The notes under the pieces are model-generated. The model was not told the origin of the DNA, did no database searches, and saw only the letters and a program-made list of their open reading frames with translations. This document shows, piece after piece, positions 41,340 through 55,838 of a DNA stretch of 55,838 nt. The position numbers and the translations under genes were made by a program. How positions within the stretch are numbered: position 1 is the stretch's first letter; each line of letters starts with the position of its first letter. The stretch comes from a virus. Taxonomy: Duplodnaviria; Caudoviricetes. The DNA lies in IMG/VR virus record IMGVR_UViG_3300030329_002466, positions 1-55,838 of that record. One strand, given 5' to 3'.

Positions 41340-42413
41340 TTATTTACAGGTTTCATCCGTACAAATACCCATATCTTTCAAACGGGCACGTCCGTATCTT
41401 TTCACTTCTTTCATTTGCATCAGTCGTATTTGCTTACCTGCACGAGTTGGGTCATCTTCATACCACCCATAATCTCCTGCTGGTTCTTTGTAAATACTAC
41501 GAAATACAAAAGATATATCGGAGTCTCTCCAACCTGCATTGAGTAACTCCATAGCAATCACATTATTTTCTTCGTGACTGCTGTGACCTTCATCTATTTT
41601 TCGCTCTATTAGTTCCATTACACATTTTCTTGGAGGTTTAATGTATTGTCCTCTTCTAATATAACTACTTTCGTGAGTGTCTTTTTTTCTAATTTCACTC
41701 AATAAATATTCTACACTATTACTAACTGTGTGTGGAATATCATGTAAATCACACACGAAATCTAAAAAATCTCGTAATGCTCTTTTACTTTTACTTGTTT
41801 CTATTTCTTCTACGTTAGGAAGCTTAGAAGCCTCCATAATTTCATCCATGCTAAGACTAAGTATTTCCTTAGATGGAAACTGACGACAGTAATATCCATT
41901 TCTTTCTCCTGTTAATTTAGATACATAAGCAGTATTAGGATAACGCCTCATACATGAAACAGTGTTTTTAATACATACTTCATCTAAAGTTTTTAACTTA
42001 AATTTATTTTTTATGTGTGTGAGATATTCTCGTATAGCTTGTCTTTTTAGACTATTAGGTAGTTCTAATGGACACCAAAAATCTATATTCATTTGAAAAC
42101 CTCTACCACCTGTAAAATAAATACGTGGTTCTATATTATTAGGTTTACAGTATTTTCTATAAAACTTTCTTACATCTCTTAAACAATTTTCTATCTTTTT
42201 ATTATCATCAAAATCAAACCATATGGTATTCAGAACTGCACTTGTGTAATCTGTTTTACCCCCTTTTTCATATAAATCATCAAAGGTATATACACTTACA
42301 TAACAGTTTTTCTTTCCATCATACTGTTTCTTTTGTTCCTCAGCTTCTTCTACACTAAAACATCTAGCTATTCTTGCTGGTATTCCGAATTCTCTGTAAT
42401 ACATTTTTTCCAT
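41340..42413 (-). CDS. Archaeo-eukaryotic primase with fused PriL/PriX-like C-terminal domain
   Basis: CYVSVY, WFDFD (DxD), YFTGGRGFQ and RRYPNT; C-terminal PP..C..H..LLNAGW..F..DY..MGIC. Confidence 0.78.
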   Translation of the reverse strand: MEKMYYREFGIPARIARCFSVEEAEEQKKQYDGKKNCYVSVYTFDDLYEKGGKTDYTSAVLNTIWFDFDDNKKIENCLRDVRKFYRKYCKPNNIEPRIYFTGGRGFQMNIDFWCPLELPNSLKRQAIREYLTHIKNKFKLKTLDEVCIKNTVSCMRRYPNTAYVSKLTGERNGYYCRQFPSKEILSLSMDEIMEASKLPNVEEIETSKSKRALRDFLDFVCDLHDIPHTVSNSVEYLLSEIRKKDTHESSYIRRGQYIKPPRKCVMELIERKIDEGHSSHEENNVIAMELLNAGWRDSDISFVFRSIYKEPAGDYGWYEDDPTRAGKQIRLMQMKEVKRYGRARLKDMGICTDETCK

Positions 42414-45354: not shown

Positions 45355-45710
45355 CTCTTGTCTCCAGAACCCTTCAATACATCTCGAGCTTTTCTGTCTG
45401 CGAGTTTTTGAAAGTTTCTGTGGAGCACTTCCTGATGAGTTAAATCATAGTGGTCCATTAACCTTGCGAGATACCAACATACATCACCTAACTCATCAAG
45501 TTTGTCAGTAACCTTCTTTCCATCTCCACGTATTTCTTTTTTAAATTTACCAAGTAGTTCACCTACTTCACTAGCCAATCCGAGCATTAAATACTCTTCT
45601 TCTTTTTCTTCAGGGTAGACCGCAGTTGTTTTGGTCCAGTCCTGATATGTTGCCCAATCCATTTCTCTTTGTTCCTGTGTTAATTTTGCATAATGTTCTA
45701 ATTCTGTCAT
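45351..45710 (-). CDS. mazG: MazG-like NTP pyrophosphohydrolase
   Basis: LGLASEVGEL..KK..DELGDVCWYLA..N..KL..R. Confidence 0.88.
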   Translation of the reverse strand: MTELEHYAKLTQEQREMDWATYQDWTKTTAVYPEEKEEEYLMLGLASEVGELLGKFKKEIRGDGKKVTDKLDELGDVCWYLARLMDHYDLTHQEVLHRNFQKLADRKARDVLKGSGDKR

Positions 45711-46324
45711 TTTTCACCTAATATTTCTTCTGCTATTTTGTTATACATTTTGTTTGCCATTAATATAGGTTGTCTTAATTTAGGGTCTATATAATGTAAA
45801 CCTTCCATACCTTTCTTAAGTTCTTCTCTAAACATATTAGCATATAGAGTATGGTTATCTGTTATATAATGGTATCCCTTTGCTACATCTTCTTTATAAT
45901 CTCTCACAAAGTTAATTATTTGGTATGCCCTACCTAAAGACCTAGCGTATTGGTCTGCTTGAGAAGGACAACCAAGTATACGAGCCATCATTAAACCTAC
46001 TGATTCAGAAGACCCTTTACAATATTCTAACATAGATTGTACTGTATGCTCTTTTTGAACTAAATCAGTAAACATAGATTGATGAAAGTCTTGAAGCCAT
46101 TCTCCCTTGAATTCATATTTATCACTTACTTCGTGAAAATTTTCTATTACCTTTCTCCATTCCTTAGTGTTAAATAAATCTCCACCTTCAACCATTTCGT
46201 CTATTACTCTCAGGTAAGAGTAAAGTTTATATATATCTTCCTGTATATTTTCAGGCCATTCCTTTACGCACTCAATAAATGTAGTGCTATATTTTTTCAT
46301 TATTTCTTCCATTCCAATCTCCAT
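45707..46324 (-). CDS. crtB: Phytoene/squalene synthase-like protein, compact (true start may be 46300-46324)
   Basis: YSTTF, LYSYLRVIDEMVE (first Asp-rich motif), YCKGSSESVGLM, LGRAYQIINFVRDYKED (second motif). Confidence 0.8.
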   Translation of the reverse strand: MEIGMEEIMKKYSTTFIECVKEWPENIQEDIYKLYSYLRVIDEMVEGGDLFNTKEWRKVIENFHEVSDKYEFKGEWLQDFHQSMFTDLVQKEHTVQSMLEYCKGSSESVGLMMARILGCPSQADQYARSLGRAYQIINFVRDYKEDVAKGYHYITDNHTLYANMFREELKKGMEGLHYIDPKLRQPILMANKMYNKIAEEILGEK

Positions 46325-48299: not shown

Positions 48300-48493
48300 T
48301 CTTTCTCATTTAAATATTTAGACACTAATTTTATACTATCTCTCAATGATTCATTATCGGTATTTTCAGCTACTTCAAAATCTAAATCCGCTAACATCAT
48401 TTTAGCTACCTTTGGTGTCATATAATTTAATATAATACTCATTATATGTATTGCTTCAAGTCTTGTTGTTACCATATACCTATAACCCCGCAA
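48296..48493 (-). CDS. Hypothetical protein
   Basis: Coupled ORF between the methyltransferase and the ATPase. Confidence 0.5.
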   Translation of the reverse strand: MRGYRYMVTTRLEAIHIMSIILNYMTPKVAKMMLADLDFEVAENTDNESLRDSIKLVSKYLNEKE

Positions 48494-50552: not shown

Positions 50553-50829
50553 TTCCTTTTATCTTTACTAGTTTACCAGTTTTAGGATTCATAGTCCATC
50601 CATGTTCCTTAACTTTATCTAGTAAAGCATCTTTGTATAAAGACTCTTCTTCTTTCTTAGCGACGAACGCTTCTAAAGATGGGTCTCTCAACTCTAATAA
50701 ACAGTTCCCACACACAATCTTACTATTTTTAAAAACTGCTTGGGAATGTTGTATTGATGCTTCTGAATTATAAATCACATCTCTACAAAAGACACATCTA
50801 CCTAATTCTGCACCATTATTCTCTTTCAT
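50536..50829 (-). CDS. Zn-finger protein (97 aa)
   Basis: CVFC..CGNC. Confidence 0.6.
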   Translation of the reverse strand: MKENNGAELGRCVFCRDVIYNSEASIQHSQAVFKNSKIVCGNCLLELRDPSLEAFVAKKEEESLYKDALLDKVKEHGWTMNPKTGKLVKIKGSKSFK

Positions 50830-50956
50830 GTAAATTACTAATCTCCGTTACGAAATGTTTCCCACATGGTTCACATTCCCATTTATGTGTTCCACCACCA
50901 TAATAAACTTTGTCGAGTGGATGTCCACATATAGGACAATTATCAGTATAACTCAT
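50816..50956 (-). CDS. Zn-ribbon microprotein (MSYTDNCPICG..CEPCG)
   Basis: Two CxxC pairs; likely start at the internal Met, ATGA-coupled. Confidence 0.55.
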   Translation of the reverse strand: MSYTDNCPICGHPLDKVYYGGGTHKWECEPCGKHFVTEISNLHERE

Positions 50957-51071
50957 GCCCAAATGAACATCCACATCCATATCATCATAAAAAATGATAA
51001 TAACATATACCACATAGCTTCATTCATAGAGGTGGGATAATTCCATAACCATTTTATAGTTTCTGTTCTTT

Positions 51072-51179
51072 TCATAAAATCCATACACCAACAATCATAC
51101 CTATACAATATCCAAATATCATACCTGATATATAGTCTACTACTCTTTGCTTTCTATCTTCAGTCCAGAATTTACTCAT
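51072..51179 (-). CDS. Membrane microprotein (35 aa)
   Basis: MSKFWTEDRKQRVVDYISGMIFGYCIGMIVGVWIL; overlap-coupled. Confidence 0.45.
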   Translation of the reverse strand: MSKFWTEDRKQRVVDYISGMIFGYCIGMIVGVWIL

Positions 51180-51258
51180 TTCCACCACAATGTGGGCAGT
51201 TAAAATTATGTGATTTTTTCATACCAACATAATCTCTACCACACCTCACACATCTCAT
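51172..51258 (-). CDS. Zn-ribbon microprotein (28 aa, MRCVRCG..CPHCGGNE)
   Basis: Two CxxC pairs; ATGA-coupled. Confidence 0.55.
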   Translation of the reverse strand: MRCVRCGRDYVGMKKSHNFNCPHCGGNE

Positions 51259-51371
51259 ATTAACAGCCTCTGATAACATACGTGACAATATGCATTACCA
51301 GCAGTGTCCCTATATCTTACATAATTCAGAGCTAATCTGCATTTACAAGTATTACAAGCTGTGAATTCCAT
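51255..51371 (-). CDS. Zn-finger microprotein (38 aa, CNTC..CHVC)
   Basis: Two CxxC pairs; coupled to neighbours. Confidence 0.55.
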   Translation of the reverse strand: MEFTACNTCKCRLALNYVRYRDTAGNAYCHVCYQRLLI

Positions 51372-51372
51372 T

Positions 51373-51657
51373 TTATCCGTGCATGTGTGCTGAAGGTTTC
51401 TTTCGTCCACCTTCATCGTGTAAAATCCTAGCTTTTAAAACTTCTTCACCGTATAAGTTGTGAAGTTTCTCTATCATGTGGTCGAAGAACTTAGTTACAT
51501 CGCTACCATCCGGCACTACTTCAATTTCACATACGCCTAATCTTAATCTATGAACTGCTGATAATTCAGCTTGAGCTGCATCCATTTTAGCTTGTAAAAC
51601 ATCATGCACTAAGTCTGCTATCAACTTCTCGTCATTTTCAGAAGATGAATCTGTCAT
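51373..51657 (-). CDS. Hypothetical protein (94 aa)
   Basis: GAGGT SD; in the operon. Confidence 0.55.
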   Translation of the reverse strand: MTDSSSENDEKLIADLVHDVLQAKMDAAQAELSAVHRLRLGVCEIEVVPDGSDVTKFFDHMIEKLHNLYGEEVLKARILHDEGGRKKPSAHMHG

Positions 51658-52638: not shown

Positions 52639-52902
52639 TTATTTAAACCACAAATAGTATGCGATTACTCCTAAACATAAGATATTACCAATACTATAAA
52701 ATATTATTTCCCTCAGCGTAAAATCGCTCCGGCCCTGTTTCTTCGTGGGGCGTTTGGTGATAGGAACCTGTGCTTTGAAATGAGGTAAGGTTGTCCAACA
52801 ATCATCGCATAGGTATGCTTTAAGATGTGGAGCTTCACTTGTATAATGTGTTTTACATCTATTACAATTGTGCCACAATACTTTATAATAAGTAGGTTTC
52901 AT
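52639..52902 (-). CDS. Zn-finger protein with C-terminal TM helix
   Basis: CNRC..CDDC and IIFYSIGNILCLGVIAYYLWF. Confidence 0.55.
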   Translation of the reverse strand: MKPTYYKVLWHNCNRCKTHYTSEAPHLKAYLCDDCWTTLPHFKAQVPITKRPTKKQGRSDFTLREIIFYSIGNILCLGVIAYYLWFK

Positions 52903-53026
52903 CTTCTCTTTATTTTAACTTTTTTAATTGGTTTGATAACTCTATTAAAATCTATAAATCTACCACCCTTTTCTGAACTTGGTGGTAATTCATATCCTTC
53001 ATAAGGTATCTTCGCTGCTTTTTTCT

Positions 53027-53539
53027 TCATATTAAATCGTTAAATAACTTCGTTAAATTCCATCTAACTGGCTTTGCCAGTCTATCAAGCTCAGTGCAAT
53101 TTTCTTCAAACCAACTCCACGGCACTGATTTTCTTTTCTTTCCATATTCATTATAAAGATATTTGGCTTGACTTGGCATCAATGCGAAACATCTCTTATT
53201 TCGTGGCTCTTCACGTCTAACTAATATCATTCCAACTCCTCCATGTCTCTCAATTCTCTCTCCAGCTTGGATTTGATGTAAAGGAATACTACGAGTGGAG
53301 CCATAGTAAAGAGGGAAAGCAGTAAGATTTCTGGTTGTTTTGCATTCCATAAGATAAGGCTTACCACGATACACAGCCATAAAATCGCCCGGCTGTTTCT
53401 CGGCAATAGCTTGTTTAACAAAACGGCTAACATCATTTGTATCTTGTATCCTAAACCAAAAACATTTCATACGTTTATCTTGTAGGCTTCTTCTAACCTC
53501 AGCTTCAAAATTCTTGCCTGTCGATTTCATTTTATCCAT
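53027..53539 (-). CDS. Holliday junction resolvase (RecU/Hjc-like PD-(D/E)XK nuclease)
   Basis: GKNFE..PGDF..LMECKT..HQI. Confidence 0.8.
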   Translation of the reverse strand: MDKMKSTGKNFEAEVRRSLQDKRMKCFWFRIQDTNDVSRFVKQAIAEKQPGDFMAVYRGKPYLMECKTTRNLTAFPLYYGSTRSIPLHQIQAGERIERHGGVGMILVRREEPRNKRCFALMPSQAKYLYNEYGKKRKSVPWSWFEENCTELDRLAKPVRWNLTKLFNDLI

Positions 53540-54255: not shown

Positions 54256-54372
54256 TTAAATCGTCTTTGGGGAACATTGTTGACAATAACCTCCGTATAA
54301 ATCAAATTCGGCTGGCGATATTCTTCTCGCACAACCTAAACATATTTTGTCGTGAAATTTATATGTTCTCAT
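54256..54372 (-). CDS. Zn-finger microprotein (38 aa, CLGC..CQQC)
   Basis: ATGA-coupled; two CxxC pairs. Confidence 0.55.
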   Translation of the reverse strand: MRTYKFHDKICLGCARRISPAEFDLYGGYCQQCSPKTI

Positions 54373-54884
54373 TTTTTCTTACTCCAAAAATTAGTTCCAT
54401 CTTTTCTCAATCTAACTGTGTATGTCCAACCATCATTACCTTTCATCCTTGTTCCAACATCGAAACAACATGCTGATACTAATGGTGACTTTCTAGATAC
54501 AACTTCACCCTTTCTTCTTGATGATGAGTTCTTCCACACTTTTGTTGTATGTCTTTTCCAATAAGGAACGCCCTTACTTTCCTGATAGTCATTCATCCTG
54601 TATTTCAGTATTCTGTCTAAGTTCCTTTTTATAGTGTGGTCTAGATACCACATACCATCGACACTTCTATCCTTTAAATAGGGCCACCTATCAAAGACTT
54701 CTTCATCAAACTCAAATCTATCTAGCCTCTCGCCCATATATCTCTCATCATGCCATTCAGCTAACTCTTTTCTAATATCATAGAGTTGCCTTGTTTCATT
54801 ACACATTTTACATTCCTCTTCATCGGGAGGCATTCCATCTCGCTTACAACTTTTACATTTCAATCTCGCAGTTTCTTCTTCCAT
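54369..54884 (-). CDS. Zn-finger protein with C-terminal RKSP..KGNDG..W domain (likely start Met28 of the track ORF)
   Basis: TAGGAGA SD before ATG 54884; CKSC..CKMC; RKSPLVSA..VGTRMKGNDGWTY..W. Confidence 0.6.
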   Translation of the reverse strand: MEEETARLKCKSCKRDGMPPDEEECKMCNETRQLYDIRKELAEWHDERYMGERLDRFEFDEEVFDRWPYLKDRSVDGMWYLDHTIKRNLDRILKYRMNDYQESKGVPYWKRHTTKVWKNSSSRRKGEVVSRKSPLVSACCFDVGTRMKGNDGWTYTVRLRKDGTNFWSKKK

Positions 54885-54904
54885 TATTTTATCTCCTAAT
54901 AAAT

Positions 54905-55535
54905 CTTTTAGACCATGATGTGATGGTCTTTTATGGTAGTCATCCATTACTCCATATTTCCTCATTTGGTGGGCCGATAGCAGTTAAGAATAAAGGAGGA
55001 TAAAACATGAGTCAAAAACAAAAGTTTTAAACTACTACCGACCTTTCACCGTGAGGGCTGATAAGAGAGAGTGTATATGAATCTTTACCACGTTAGTAAA
55101 TCTTGGGTTCCTACTGTGCTTCTCACGAACTAAAATCGGTCCAGCTTTACGGAAGGGTAATTTACAATCACGTGTTGTCCTCGGCGGTATCTAGTGACCT
55201 TGTTTATCGCTCACGATGAGCTTACTCCTTGTCCTTGATACCCAAAAAGGCATGAATCATGCTTGACTTAAAGGTAGACGCATTATGATTAGCTAATCTC
55301 CTAAAATTGGTTCAGCGTATATGTCCCTGCCACTAAAGGCGTCGGGATTCAGTCCATCCGCATAATGCGTTCAGGTGTTTATATACGGAGTAGCACCACA
55401 TCGCTACTCATTCATCTGCTTTCGACGTTATCAGATTCTCTAATCTCCCCGAGTTTTCCAGAGTCTCTAAACTCACGTTCGGGTTTATCTGATTATCTAT
55501 CGAACTTCTCAGTCTGATTCAACACTCAAAGTCTT
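54905..55535 (-). ncRNA. Candidate large structured non-coding RNA (~600 nt)
   Basis: By far the longest gap without a credible gene in a densely packed genome; at least 10 nested stems; G-U wobbles pair only on the minus strand. Boundaries are approximate. Confidence 0.65.
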
Positions 55536-55536
55536 A

Positions 55537-55713
55537 TCAACCTTTAATGTCACCTTCCTCCTCACCATAGTGAGGGTCAAATAATCCATTTTCGATTACA
55601 TTCTCAAGCCATTTGTCTTGATATCTCAATGGTAATTGCATATGTATTATATCTGCTATAATCCATATACAATCTCTCAAAGCTTCTATTTCTTTATCTT
55701 TCTTTTCTTCCAT
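55537..55713 (-). CDS. Hypothetical protein (58 aa, MEEKKDKEIEALRDCIWII..)
   Basis: GGAGA SD, ATG 55713, TGA ending 55537; not in the ORF track. Confidence 0.55.
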   Translation of the reverse strand: MEEKKDKEIEALRDCIWIIADIIHMQLPLRYQDKWLENVIENGLFDPHYGEEEGDIKG

Positions 55714-55838
55714 TCTTTCTCCGTTAATTTATATTTCGATATAACTGTTAATATTTCATCGGCTGTCCAATTCCTGTCACCATATTCTTTTAGACAGCCT
55801 TTACTGATTCGTTCGAGTCTACTCATCTGCGGGGCTTA

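Follow-up and report, generated by a model that had tools for sequence, protein, structure and literature searches.

A large structured RNA, very probably of a new class, upstream of an uncharacterized gene family in uncultured marine viruses

What does a virus encode in a stretch of 575 nucleotides (nt) in which no gene can be found? This question is raised by positions 54968-55542 of IMGVR_UViG_3300030329_002466, a linear IMG/VR virus contig (Duplodnaviria; Caudoviricetes) of 55,838 bases with an estimated completeness of ~81%, which we analyzed over its whole length (hereafter, the window). An initial annotation, made from the sequence alone, had proposed a novel large, ornate non-coding RNA of an archaeal virus at 54905-55535. 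Here, we corrected the limits to 54968-55542 and conclude that the minus strand of this stretch, which lies between an open reading frame (ORF) of 58 amino acids (aa; 55537-55713, minus strand) and the gene of a 198-aa protein that we refer to as o198 (54369-54965, minus strand), is very probably a member of an uncatalogued class of large structured RNA. What this RNA does is less certain, and we weigh several readings, of which we tentatively favor one in which the RNA acts in cis on the expression of the o198 module.

Homologs, covariation, and comparison with RNA catalogs

Between the two flanking reading frames there is no ORF of at least 60 aa, and each of the six frames of 54968-55542 is interrupted by 10-16 stop codons. 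Recoded stop codons were rejected as an explanation because recoding any single stop codon opens no frame across the stretch; likewise, a pseudogene was ruled out, as the 90-aa gene that occupies the syntenic place in relatives has its homolog at 48317-48475. As the initial annotation had stated, this is the longest gene-free stretch found in the window, the other large gap among ORFs of at least 80 aa (50829-51373) being occupied by a chain of small zinc-ribbon ORFs. The latter overlap one another at 50816-51416 on the minus strand, contain CxxC motifs, and encode 65, 38, and 53 aa. The impression that the stretch is rich in G+C was also borne out (42.3% compared to a window mean of 36.1% with a standard deviation (sd) of 3.2% in 575-nt windows; top 3%). 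By contrast, the description of the region as packed with nested helices did not survive as such, as the folding of the single sequence is within chance. Because the lone sequence folds no better than its shuffled versions, the list of twelve stems in the initial annotation amounted, by itself, to no more than chance.

The evidence for a structured RNA comes from homologs. Searched as DNA against 50,697 phage records, the region gave no match, and o198, used singly and as an alignment, had no relative among IMG/VR contigs. The protein collection contained 33 homologs of o198, and 36 metagenome loci were retrieved with their alignment. The DNA 5' of o198 in these loci is homologous to the gap, with 89% identity in the locus L027 and 67-78% identity in the other loci of a first group (group 1; the window and L027-L040); an identity of 72-74% persists over 88 nt beside the start codon even in loci in which the o198-like protein has only ~30% identity. 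No ORF is conserved at the element in the 13 relatives examined. A covariance model, R1, built from the 3' part of the element identified 31 instances, i.e. the window and 30 of the 36 metagenome loci, with E values (E) of 1.6e-8 or better and scores of 105-132 bits in 30 of the instances; in the six loci that did not match, the contig does not include the upstream DNA. R1 found no instance in six related viral records or in the four matches of a pattern scan. These four matches (one viral, three in genomes) to a 20-mer hairpin pattern were rejected as chance because the rest of the element is absent from them and R1 gives them no score, and a bipartite pattern composed of the loop and the 3' strand had no match in IMG/VR; in these pattern scans, no other IMG/VR record had the element. 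The six related viral records, identified by a family B DNA polymerase (PolB) that is 62-79% identical or a RecU that is 55% identical to that of the window, carry neither the RNA nor o198 at the syntenic place or elsewhere. The syntenic place holds instead a homolog of the 58-aa ORF, followed by a gene of 90-95 aa, a small zinc-ribbon gene, and RecU.

All homologs of the element are non-coding, and their lengths range from 284 to 590 nt. They fall into two arrangements. In group 1, a small ORF of the 46-aa type is followed by the RNA (425-590 nt) and o198, and the window and L027 have the 58-aa ORF in addition, ahead of the RNA. In group 2 (L043-L059), the order is an ATP-dependent DNA ligase, the 46-aa-type ORF, the RNA (284-441 nt), a basic ORF of 53-59 aa, the o198-like gene, and a 58-aa-type ORF. 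Thus, in 31 of 31 instances with upstream DNA, the RNA precedes o198 or an o198-like gene in the same orientation. A 1427-nt relative contig spans the small ORF, the RNA, and o198; the run from which it originates was guessed to be RNA, and the contig shows neither transcription, strand, nor ends.

Covariation is seen in both of these diverged groups. In group 1, 98.5% of 893 alignment cells pair, and 15 of 100 pairs have double changes compared to 0-5 in six controls in which the structure was slid along the alignment; none of 500 shuffles reached this count. In group 2, pairing is kept in 95.0% of 585 cells, with double changes in 18 of 67 pairs compared to 3-6 in slid controls, a count again reached by none of 500 shuffles. 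Because the sequences are few and related, the shuffle controls overstate significance. A cleaner test than these alignment-wide counts is provided by the 3' hairpin, because it was taken from the window's own sequence (the 14-bp stem of the initial annotation together with GGUG/CACC): all of the 306 cells from 18 distinct sequences of both groups pair (100%), with three pairs that have double changes and five that have single changes of the G.U type.

The same data speak to the strand. The initial annotation had noticed mismatches that resolve as G-U pairs only on the minus strand, and this observation was confirmed by the changes in the hairpin, by the G.U and A.C counts, and by the folding energies. 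Specifically, read on the minus strand, cells with G.U outnumber cells with A.C by 80 to 0 in group 1 and 57 to 9 in group 2, a count that is partly circular, and the minus and plus strands of three alignments have RNAalifold energies of -162 and -147, -140 and -121, and -42 and -31, respectively. Within group 1, the mean pairwise identity is 83.6% for the RNA, reaching 93.7% in the 3' 150 nt and 79.5% in the remainder, compared to 84.7%, 87.7%, and 69.2% at the first, second, and third codon positions of o198. Because of these identities relative to the codon positions together with the strand-specific changes and energies, we conclude that the element is under purifying selection as a nucleic acid, and on the strand of the genes.

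Next, we consider whether the RNA is already known. Rfam 15 gave no match at gathering score in the entire window; at E<=10, the region 54700-55838 gave five chance-level matches only (10-15 bits compared to cut-offs of 36-55), and at E<=1, 11 homologous loci gave none. Thus, no Rfam family matched the window or the 11 homologous loci. Specifically, there was no covariance-model match in the window or the 11 loci to RNase P RNA, transfer-messenger RNA (tmRNA), signal recognition particle (SRP) RNA, 6S RNA, or phi29-type packaging RNA (pRNA), and ROOL, GOLLD, OLE, and raiA were not among the matches at E<=10 in 54700-55838 or at E<=1 in the 11 loci. ARAGORN detected neither a transfer RNA (tRNA) nor a tmRNA in the 55.8-kb window. 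These results agree with the initial remark that signatures of RNase P, tmRNA, SRP, and introns are lacking. A group I or group II intron was rejected as a candidate: no Rfam intron model matches, and neither a fused ORF nor o198 is present in relatives without the element. A tRNA-like CCA end was dropped because group 2 often has CACUAA there. Full-text literature searches returned no description of such an RNA, and a short overlapping motif in the supplements of PMC10690425 is possible. PMC10690425, an IMG/VR-wide survey, gives candidates of 29-151 nt that had to be present in at least three IMG/VR regions. We conclude with high confidence that this RNA, which matches no catalogued RNA family, defines a previously uncatalogued class of large structured RNA. 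Of the earlier proposal of a new class of large non-coding RNA, a large structured RNA on the minus strand with covariation and no Rfam family therefore stands; its processing from the early polycistronic transcript is a conjecture, and its free-standing status is less certain, as the RNA is locked to the flanking ORFs in the manner described below.

Architecture of the RNA and its fit to the flanking genes

To describe the fold, we generated consensus structures with RNAalifold separately on the group 1 and group 2 alignments. Both groups give one plan consisting of a long-range helix P1, a multibranched interior with variable arms, and a near-invariant, bulged 3' hairpin of 17 bp. In the window, the whole element extends over 575 nt from the P1 5' strand to the foot of the 3' hairpin (54968-55542; here and below, all features of the RNA lie on the minus strand), and its fold constrained to the consensus helices has an energy of -160.7 kcal/mol compared to an unconstrained minimum free energy (MFE) of -162.8 kcal/mol.

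P1 is formed by the 5' strand GGUUGAUAAGA (55532-55542) and the 3' strand UCUUAUCAGCC (55056-55066), which together make up inverted repeat I2. In group 2, the P1 strands have another sequence (GAUUAGCGGAGAGA with UCUCUUUCCGUUAAUC, and a further four pairs) and are still complementary, with two double and two one-sided changes. Across both groups, the duplex forms in 16 of 16 distinct sequences with energies of -11 to -29 kcal/mol compared to -6 to -13 kcal/mol for shuffled partners. P2 lies inside P1 and pairs GAGUG and UGAAUC (55516-55527) with CACUC and GAUUCA (55069-55083), with one A-U/G-C swap in three of nine sequences. P1 and P2 together make an interrupted stem of ~22 bp that encloses the RNA; P1 alone has only 11 bp in group 1.

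The interior begins with the P3 arm (55416-55512; CUG/CAG, UUCGAU/GUCGAA, and AUCAGA/UCUGAU), in which three pairs have double changes in helix 5 at the level of AUCAGA/UCUGAU and of which the tip (~55436-55487) varies among homologs in length and sequence. P4 is a long-range helix between AUGAAU (55410-55415) and AUUCAU (55252-55257); it is common to both groups (GUGAAU/AUUCAY), and in three of nine distinct group 2 sequences GUGAAU/AUUCAC is replaced by GUAAAU/AUUUAC. The P5 hairpin, GAGUAGC...GCUACUC (55388-55409), has changed its stem with pairing kept: in group 1, pairing persists through five stem sequences (UAGC/GCUA, UAUC/GAUA, G(A)CC/GGCC, UGUC/GACA, and GAC/GUC), and a sixth, in L033, keeps it over five pairs. 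P6, GUAUA/UAUAC (55317-55386), has double changes in four of its five pairs and encloses an insertion specific to the window; at that place, the insertion is missing from the other eight full-length group 1 homologs, of which seven lack the stretch and L027 has unrelated sequence. The P7 domain (55261-55316) contains the near-invariant GGAGAUUAGCUAAUCAUNAUGCGUCUAC and two pairs with double changes. P8, CCUU/GAGG plus GGUAUC/GAUACC with a variable tip (55179-55250), also has two such pairs, and in P9, CACGU/ACGUG plus GUAAAU/AUUUAC (55089-55174), which carries a variable insert of 29-86 nt, CACGU/ACGUG is swapped for CACAC/GUGUG and GUAAAU/AUUUAC for CCAAU/AUUGG. The most conserved part is the 3' hairpin (54968-55050), composed of GGUG, a 3-nt bulge, 13 bp, an inner stem, and the return strand. 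While the interior is barely alignable between groups 1 and 2, this hairpin beside the start codon is nearly invariant.

Seen against these consensus structures, the twelve stems of the initial annotation had mixed fates. Conservation was seen for five: four show covariation or G.U-type changes (ATCAGAT/ATCTGAT, GAGTAGC/GCTACTC, GGTATC/GATACC, and 54972-54985 with 55030-55043), and the fifth, TTCGA/TCGAA, is simply kept. Three more (CCCGA/TCGGG, GAGT/ACTC, and GCTCA/TGAGC) are located in lineage-specific tips of variable arms. The remaining four are unsupported. The 10-bp ACGCATTATG/CATAATGCGT is a real repeat (inverted repeat I4), and the proposed helix is not supported, as one of its arms lies in the P6 insertion. 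GCATG/CATGC is broken in most homologs, and its bases belong to the long-range P4; the hairpin at 55084-55100 is superseded by long-range pairs of P9 and P2; and AGACCAT/ATGGTCT lies inside the coding sequence of o198.

At its 5' end, the RNA overlaps the upstream ORF. In 20 of 20 full-length sequences, the stop codon of that ORF is within the P1 5' strand; in the window, it is the UGA (55537-55539) of the 58-aa ORF. Directly 5' of the RNA, 18 of the 20 full-length homologs have a member of the 46-aa family; the exceptions are the window, where the 46-aa ORF lies at 55686-55826 on the minus strand, and L027. Homologs of the 58-aa ORF occupy other positions in relatives: the ORF is 5' of the RNA in the window and L027 and 3' of o198 in others (e.g. 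L032, 1436-1556). Because the 58-aa ORF has been relocated and its stop codon is again in P1, the module boundaries appear to be recombination points.

At its 3' end, the hairpin stops 2 nt before the next start codon in group 2 and, in the window, before the first in-frame ATG, and 5 nt before it in the other group 1 sequences. This start codon has no Shine-Dalgarno (SD) sequence. The start of o198 that is conserved among homologs is the ATG at 54945-54947; an 18-nt insertion (54948-54965, minus strand) that is present only in the window adds an extra in-frame ATG (54963-54965) 2 nt past the hairpin. We note that the same insertion places a GGAG before the conserved o198 ATG.

The loop region of the hairpin (54992-55013) contains unpaired CCUCCUUU (54992-54999) and CAU (55007-55009). 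These two motifs, 5-7 nt apart with CAU upstream, are kept in 30 of 30 sequences with slight variation in the flanking bases, and CCUCCUUU is unpaired in both consensus folds. The 22-mer of the loop occurs exactly once in the window. Read on the plus strand, the loop bases of the window are AAAGGAGG-N7-ATG, and the plus-strand ORF that follows this ATG has 7-41 aa among the 29 sequences in which it is not cut by the contig end, in a frame that is not conserved. Because this ORF is short and its frame is not conserved, we read the loop motif from its sequence as a putative minus-strand "anti-ribosome-binding site". Pairing of CCUCC in the loop with purine runs in the RNA or the upstream ORF was dropped because it is not conserved. 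An archaeal bulge-helix-bulge site and a conserved sigma-70 or TATA promoter in the loop were also rejected, as neither is kept across groups.

In 14 of 15 distinct rows of group 2, the loop finds its best partner within 330 nt downstream in the SD-AUG of the o198-like gene, at energies ~1-2 sd beyond those of shuffled loops (in one example of pairing with a translation initiation region (TIR), -18.5 compared to -15.0 +/- 1.8). In group 1, the loop can pair with a TIR internal to o198, which is its best site in few sequences only. The candidate SD target is ~70 nt downstream in the window and ~135-160 nt downstream in group 2. The internal TIR of o198, AGGAG-N8-AUG (54882-54897, minus strand), is located at the Met that matches the start of the group 2 protein; AGGAG-N5-8-AUG is conserved at the nucleotide level in 15 of 15 distinct group 1 sequences, and the Met is invariant in the protein alignment. 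Two forms of o198 may be produced, or the first 20 codons of the gene may serve as a leader ORF.

For the protein itself, the gene of which is always 3' of the RNA, neither Pfam, PHROGs, nor NCBIfam gave a family above threshold, and no PDB sequence matched below E 3; these family searches recognized no RNA-binding, nuclease, RuvC, or HNH domain, and the ESM Atlas gave no usable match. The protein carries a CxxC...CxxC pattern at its N terminus and, at its C terminus, a conserved module of ~45 residues (about 140-192). A profile search retrieved 97 cluster representatives, most of which share only this C-terminal module. Its consensus, R.SP..SA....GT...GNDG..Y.V...K.G...W.K, occurs alone, in tandem, or fused to varied domains; the module is unnamed in Pfam, and among 40 representatives scanned there was one weak match, to 2C_adapt. 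The small protein of 53-59 aa encoded between the RNA and the o198-like gene in group 2 (L043-L059) is basic with a Lys/Arg-rich tail and has the pattern PYEGY.LP.S.EKG...KIRRKK. It is also encoded at another place in the window, 52899-53030 on the minus strand, and in the related contig G006.

Possible functions of the RNA

Our working hypothesis, which we hold at somewhat less than even confidence, is that the RNA acts in cis on the expression of the o198 module, that is, on downstream translation. We favor this reading because the end of the RNA at the start codon is by far the most conserved, this start has no SD sequence, and the loop mirrors a ribosome-binding site. Specifically, the RNA would be co-transcribed with the minus-strand early genes, and the hairpin at the foot of the start codon would gate initiation there. 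The loop, as an antisense image of a ribosome-binding site and AUG, could mask the SD-led start that is internal to o198 or downstream, and the large upstream domain would serve as a folding or sensing platform for a ligand or a protein. The bound protein might be o198 itself, in which case an autoregulatory loop would result.

Several observations weigh against an action in cis. Known cis-acting leaders are much shorter than 430-590 nt. The duplexes between loop and TIR exceed those of shuffled loops by only ~1-2 sd, and the internal TIR is the best site of the loop in only a few of the group 1 sequences. A start without an SD sequence is unremarkable in this virus, as 27 of 47 genes have no core SD, and the stop codon in P1 may be a by-product because the P1 sequence itself contains UGA, UAA, or UAG. 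Because the loci were found through o198, the linkage of the RNA to o198 is subject to ascertainment bias. Other points concern the structured RNA itself: there are only nine distinct full-length sequences per group, these are mutually related, and the structures were predicted on the very alignments in which changes were counted. Moreover, the single sequence of the element in the window has MFE z-scores of -1.66 on the minus and -1.36 on the plus strand, and 4 of 100 and 10 of 100 shuffles, respectively, fold equally well.

The strongest alternative is a free-standing ornate RNA that is excised from the early transcript at P1-P2 and the 3' hairpin and acts in trans or as a ribonucleoprotein (RNP) with o198 or, in group 2, with the basic 53-59-aa protein. 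We regard this reading as nearly as likely as an action in cis. Its size, multibranched fold, variable peripheral arms, and conserved helices make the RNA resemble large non-coding RNAs and not leaders, and the interrupted P1-P2 stem that encloses it is analogous to the processing stems of ribosomal RNA (rRNA) and phage T7. Linkage to one protein family that is strict down to ~30% aa identity, and the Lys/Arg-rich tail of the small group 2 protein, would also fit an RNP, and the pairing of RNA and ORF recalls modules of the HEARO/IscB kind. On the other hand, the ends, abundance, and processing of such an RNA are predictions only, an interior that is barely alignable across groups next to a near-invariant hairpin would be unusual for a ribozyme-like core, o198 has no recognizable RNA-binding or nuclease domain, and no tRNA genes are nearby. 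Because the RNA is locked to the flanking ORFs and to the same gene family, we consider a role in cis or with a protein partner at least as likely as a free RNA of the ROOL or GOLLD kind.

Two bolder readings extend these possibilities. First, the RNA could be a prokaryotic-virus counterpart of a ribosome shunt or an internal ribosome entry site (IRES), in which the fold would bring the stop codon in P1 beside the SD-less start and so allow re-initiation, or a near-leaderless start after excision, with the loop timing the SD-led o198 start; we regard this as unlikely. Second, and equally bold, the RNA may be the scaffold or guide of a new RNP with o198.

Less probable still is an antisense RNA that acts in trans, with the CCUCCUUU...CAU loop pairing to the SD and AUG of host or viral mRNAs and shutting off or re-programming their translation. 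C-rich loops of small RNAs of Gram-positive bacteria pair with SD regions in this manner, and here, in 30 of 30 sequences, the loop is exactly complementary to AAAGGAGG-N5-7-AUGAG; it is unpaired in both folds. Yet, the window has no second site with up to three mismatches to the 22-mer, the spacer length differs between the groups, and the reading accounts for ~25 of the 575 nt.

We give very little credence to a functional unit on the plus strand, i.e. a small ORF with a perfect SD and ATG (MSQ...) that possibly forms a cis-antisense couple with the minus-strand transcript: AAAGGAGG, 5-7 nt, and ATGAG(T/C)CA are invariant in 30 of 30 sequences, but the 29 uncut ORFs of 7-41 aa do not keep the frame and have only "MSQ/MSH" in common, the G.U pairs that the structure needs become A.C on that strand, and RNAalifold favors the minus strand in three of three alignments. 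Just as remote is an element that functions as DNA (an origin, packaging site, or promoter/operator) or a decaying gene remnant without RNA function, for which one could cite the location in the early region, close to where the incomplete linear contig ends, a sigma-70-like TTGACT-17-TATTCT in the hairpin loop, and the absence of the whole stretch from relatives with 62-79% PolB identity, against which stand compensatory and G.U-only changes confined to one strand, conservation that exceeds that of synonymous sites, a G+C content that is raised and not lowered, the lack in the region of iterons, tandem arrays, an AT-rich unwinding stretch, or repeat families beyond chance-sized pairs, a -10-like hexamer that is not kept in group 2, and promoter-like sites that are not enriched (2 found compared to 5.3 expected).

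Whichever role applies, the layout is unusual in combining a base-for-base fit between two ORFs, an exposed mimic of an anti-SD sequence, and one linked family of uncharacterized proteins. As a regulator or bridge of translation, the RNA would be of unusual size among such devices of prokaryotic viruses; as a free RNA or part of an RNP, it would be a new ornate RNA with a candidate protein partner. To our knowledge, structured RNAs of more than ~400 nt form few known classes apart from rRNA, introns, and RNase P, and earlier large RNAs have opened new biology, as illustrated by the OLE RNP, the HEARO/IscB guides, and the ROOL and GOLLD cages. Here, a new class supported by covariation comes from uncultured marine viruses, and the covariance model together with two seed alignments permits a wider search and submission to Rfam.

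Genomic setting and relation to known systems

The window encodes a portal and an HK97-type capsid protein. Very large tail-region proteins are encoded on its plus strand (1-37428), and on its minus strand, from 37429 to the end, a replication and early block encodes a family B DNA polymerase, a class II ribonucleotide reductase, a RecU-like resolvase, and a DNA methylase. The RNA sits in this early block, 300 bases short of the contig end. The initial annotation had assigned the contig to an archaeal virus, and no test pointed to an archaeal host. The nearest relatives of the class II ribonucleotide reductase, at ~48-49% identity, are in phages of Alphaproteobacteria; the polymerase matches cyanophages only, at 23-27%; searches with the capsid and a neighboring structural protein gave no relatives; and an SD sequence of the GGAG/GAGG type precedes 20 of the 47 genes, the other 27 being those without a core SD. 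The sole archaeal-flavored match was to PriS and was below threshold (E 0.006).

Three further observations concern the replication block. The match to PriS, the small subunit of archaeo-eukaryotic primases, is a weak one by a 357-aa ORF (41340-42413, minus strand; E 0.006). A 205-aa ORF (45707-46324, minus strand) matches the Pfam family SQS_PSY (squalene/phytoene synthase; E 3e-28), making it an unusual auxiliary metabolic gene inside the block, and it is also present in the related viruses G002-G005. The related IMG/VR contig G001 has two diverged PolB genes that are 65% and 79% identical to that of the window (L010, 4797-7031, minus strand; L011, 11358-13463, plus strand), each with its own helicase-like and methylase genes and in opposite orientation; this double PolB could reflect a chimeric assembly or, alternatively, a replication module duplicated in inverted orientation.

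How does the RNA compare to systems of known type? Long-range stems bracket rRNAs, and hairpins cleaved by RNase III lie between the early genes of T7. The present RNA is similar in that its flanking sequences pair as an interrupted stem of ~22 bp and that a long bulged hairpin lies between early cistrons; it differs in that P1 alone has 11 bp in group 1 and that there is no conserved bulge-helix-bulge, and cleavage here is an analogy only. With translational leaders that act in cis, such as riboswitch platforms and phage operators, it shares its position abutting a start codon, an exposed anti-SD-like CCUCC, and strongest conservation at the start-codon end. However, it is several times the typical size of such leaders, the adjacent start has no SD to sequester, and the candidate SD target lies downstream (~70 nt in the window and ~135-160 nt in group 2) with a pairing energy marginally above that of shuffles.

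The omega-RNA of HEARO/IscB systems is similarly a large structured RNA immediately 5' of one ORF family, in the same orientation, with a linkage that holds across deep divergence. The differences are that o198 has no RuvC, HNH, or other recognized domain, that neither transposon ends nor a guide segment was identified here, and that the RNA and the o198-like gene of group 2 are separated by a 53-59-aa ORF. The Rfam library includes HEARO, and the present RNA has no Rfam match in the window or the 11 loci.

Finally, ROOL and GOLLD often adjoin tRNA genes in phage or prophage DNA, while the 55.8-kb window has no tRNA gene according to ARAGORN. Nor does the present RNA match their covariance models (at E 10 in the window region and E 1 in the 11 loci), and it differs from both in that it is tied to its flanking ORFs, by a stop codon within P1 and a start codon past the last helix, and to one downstream family. 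PMC12286853 describes ROOL, GOLLD, and OLE as forming cage-like, homo-oligomeric RNA assemblies. We conclude that the resemblance to ROOL and GOLLD is one in kind only: like them, this RNA of a tailed virus is hundreds of nt long and folds into a multibranched structure in which helices are conserved and arms vary.

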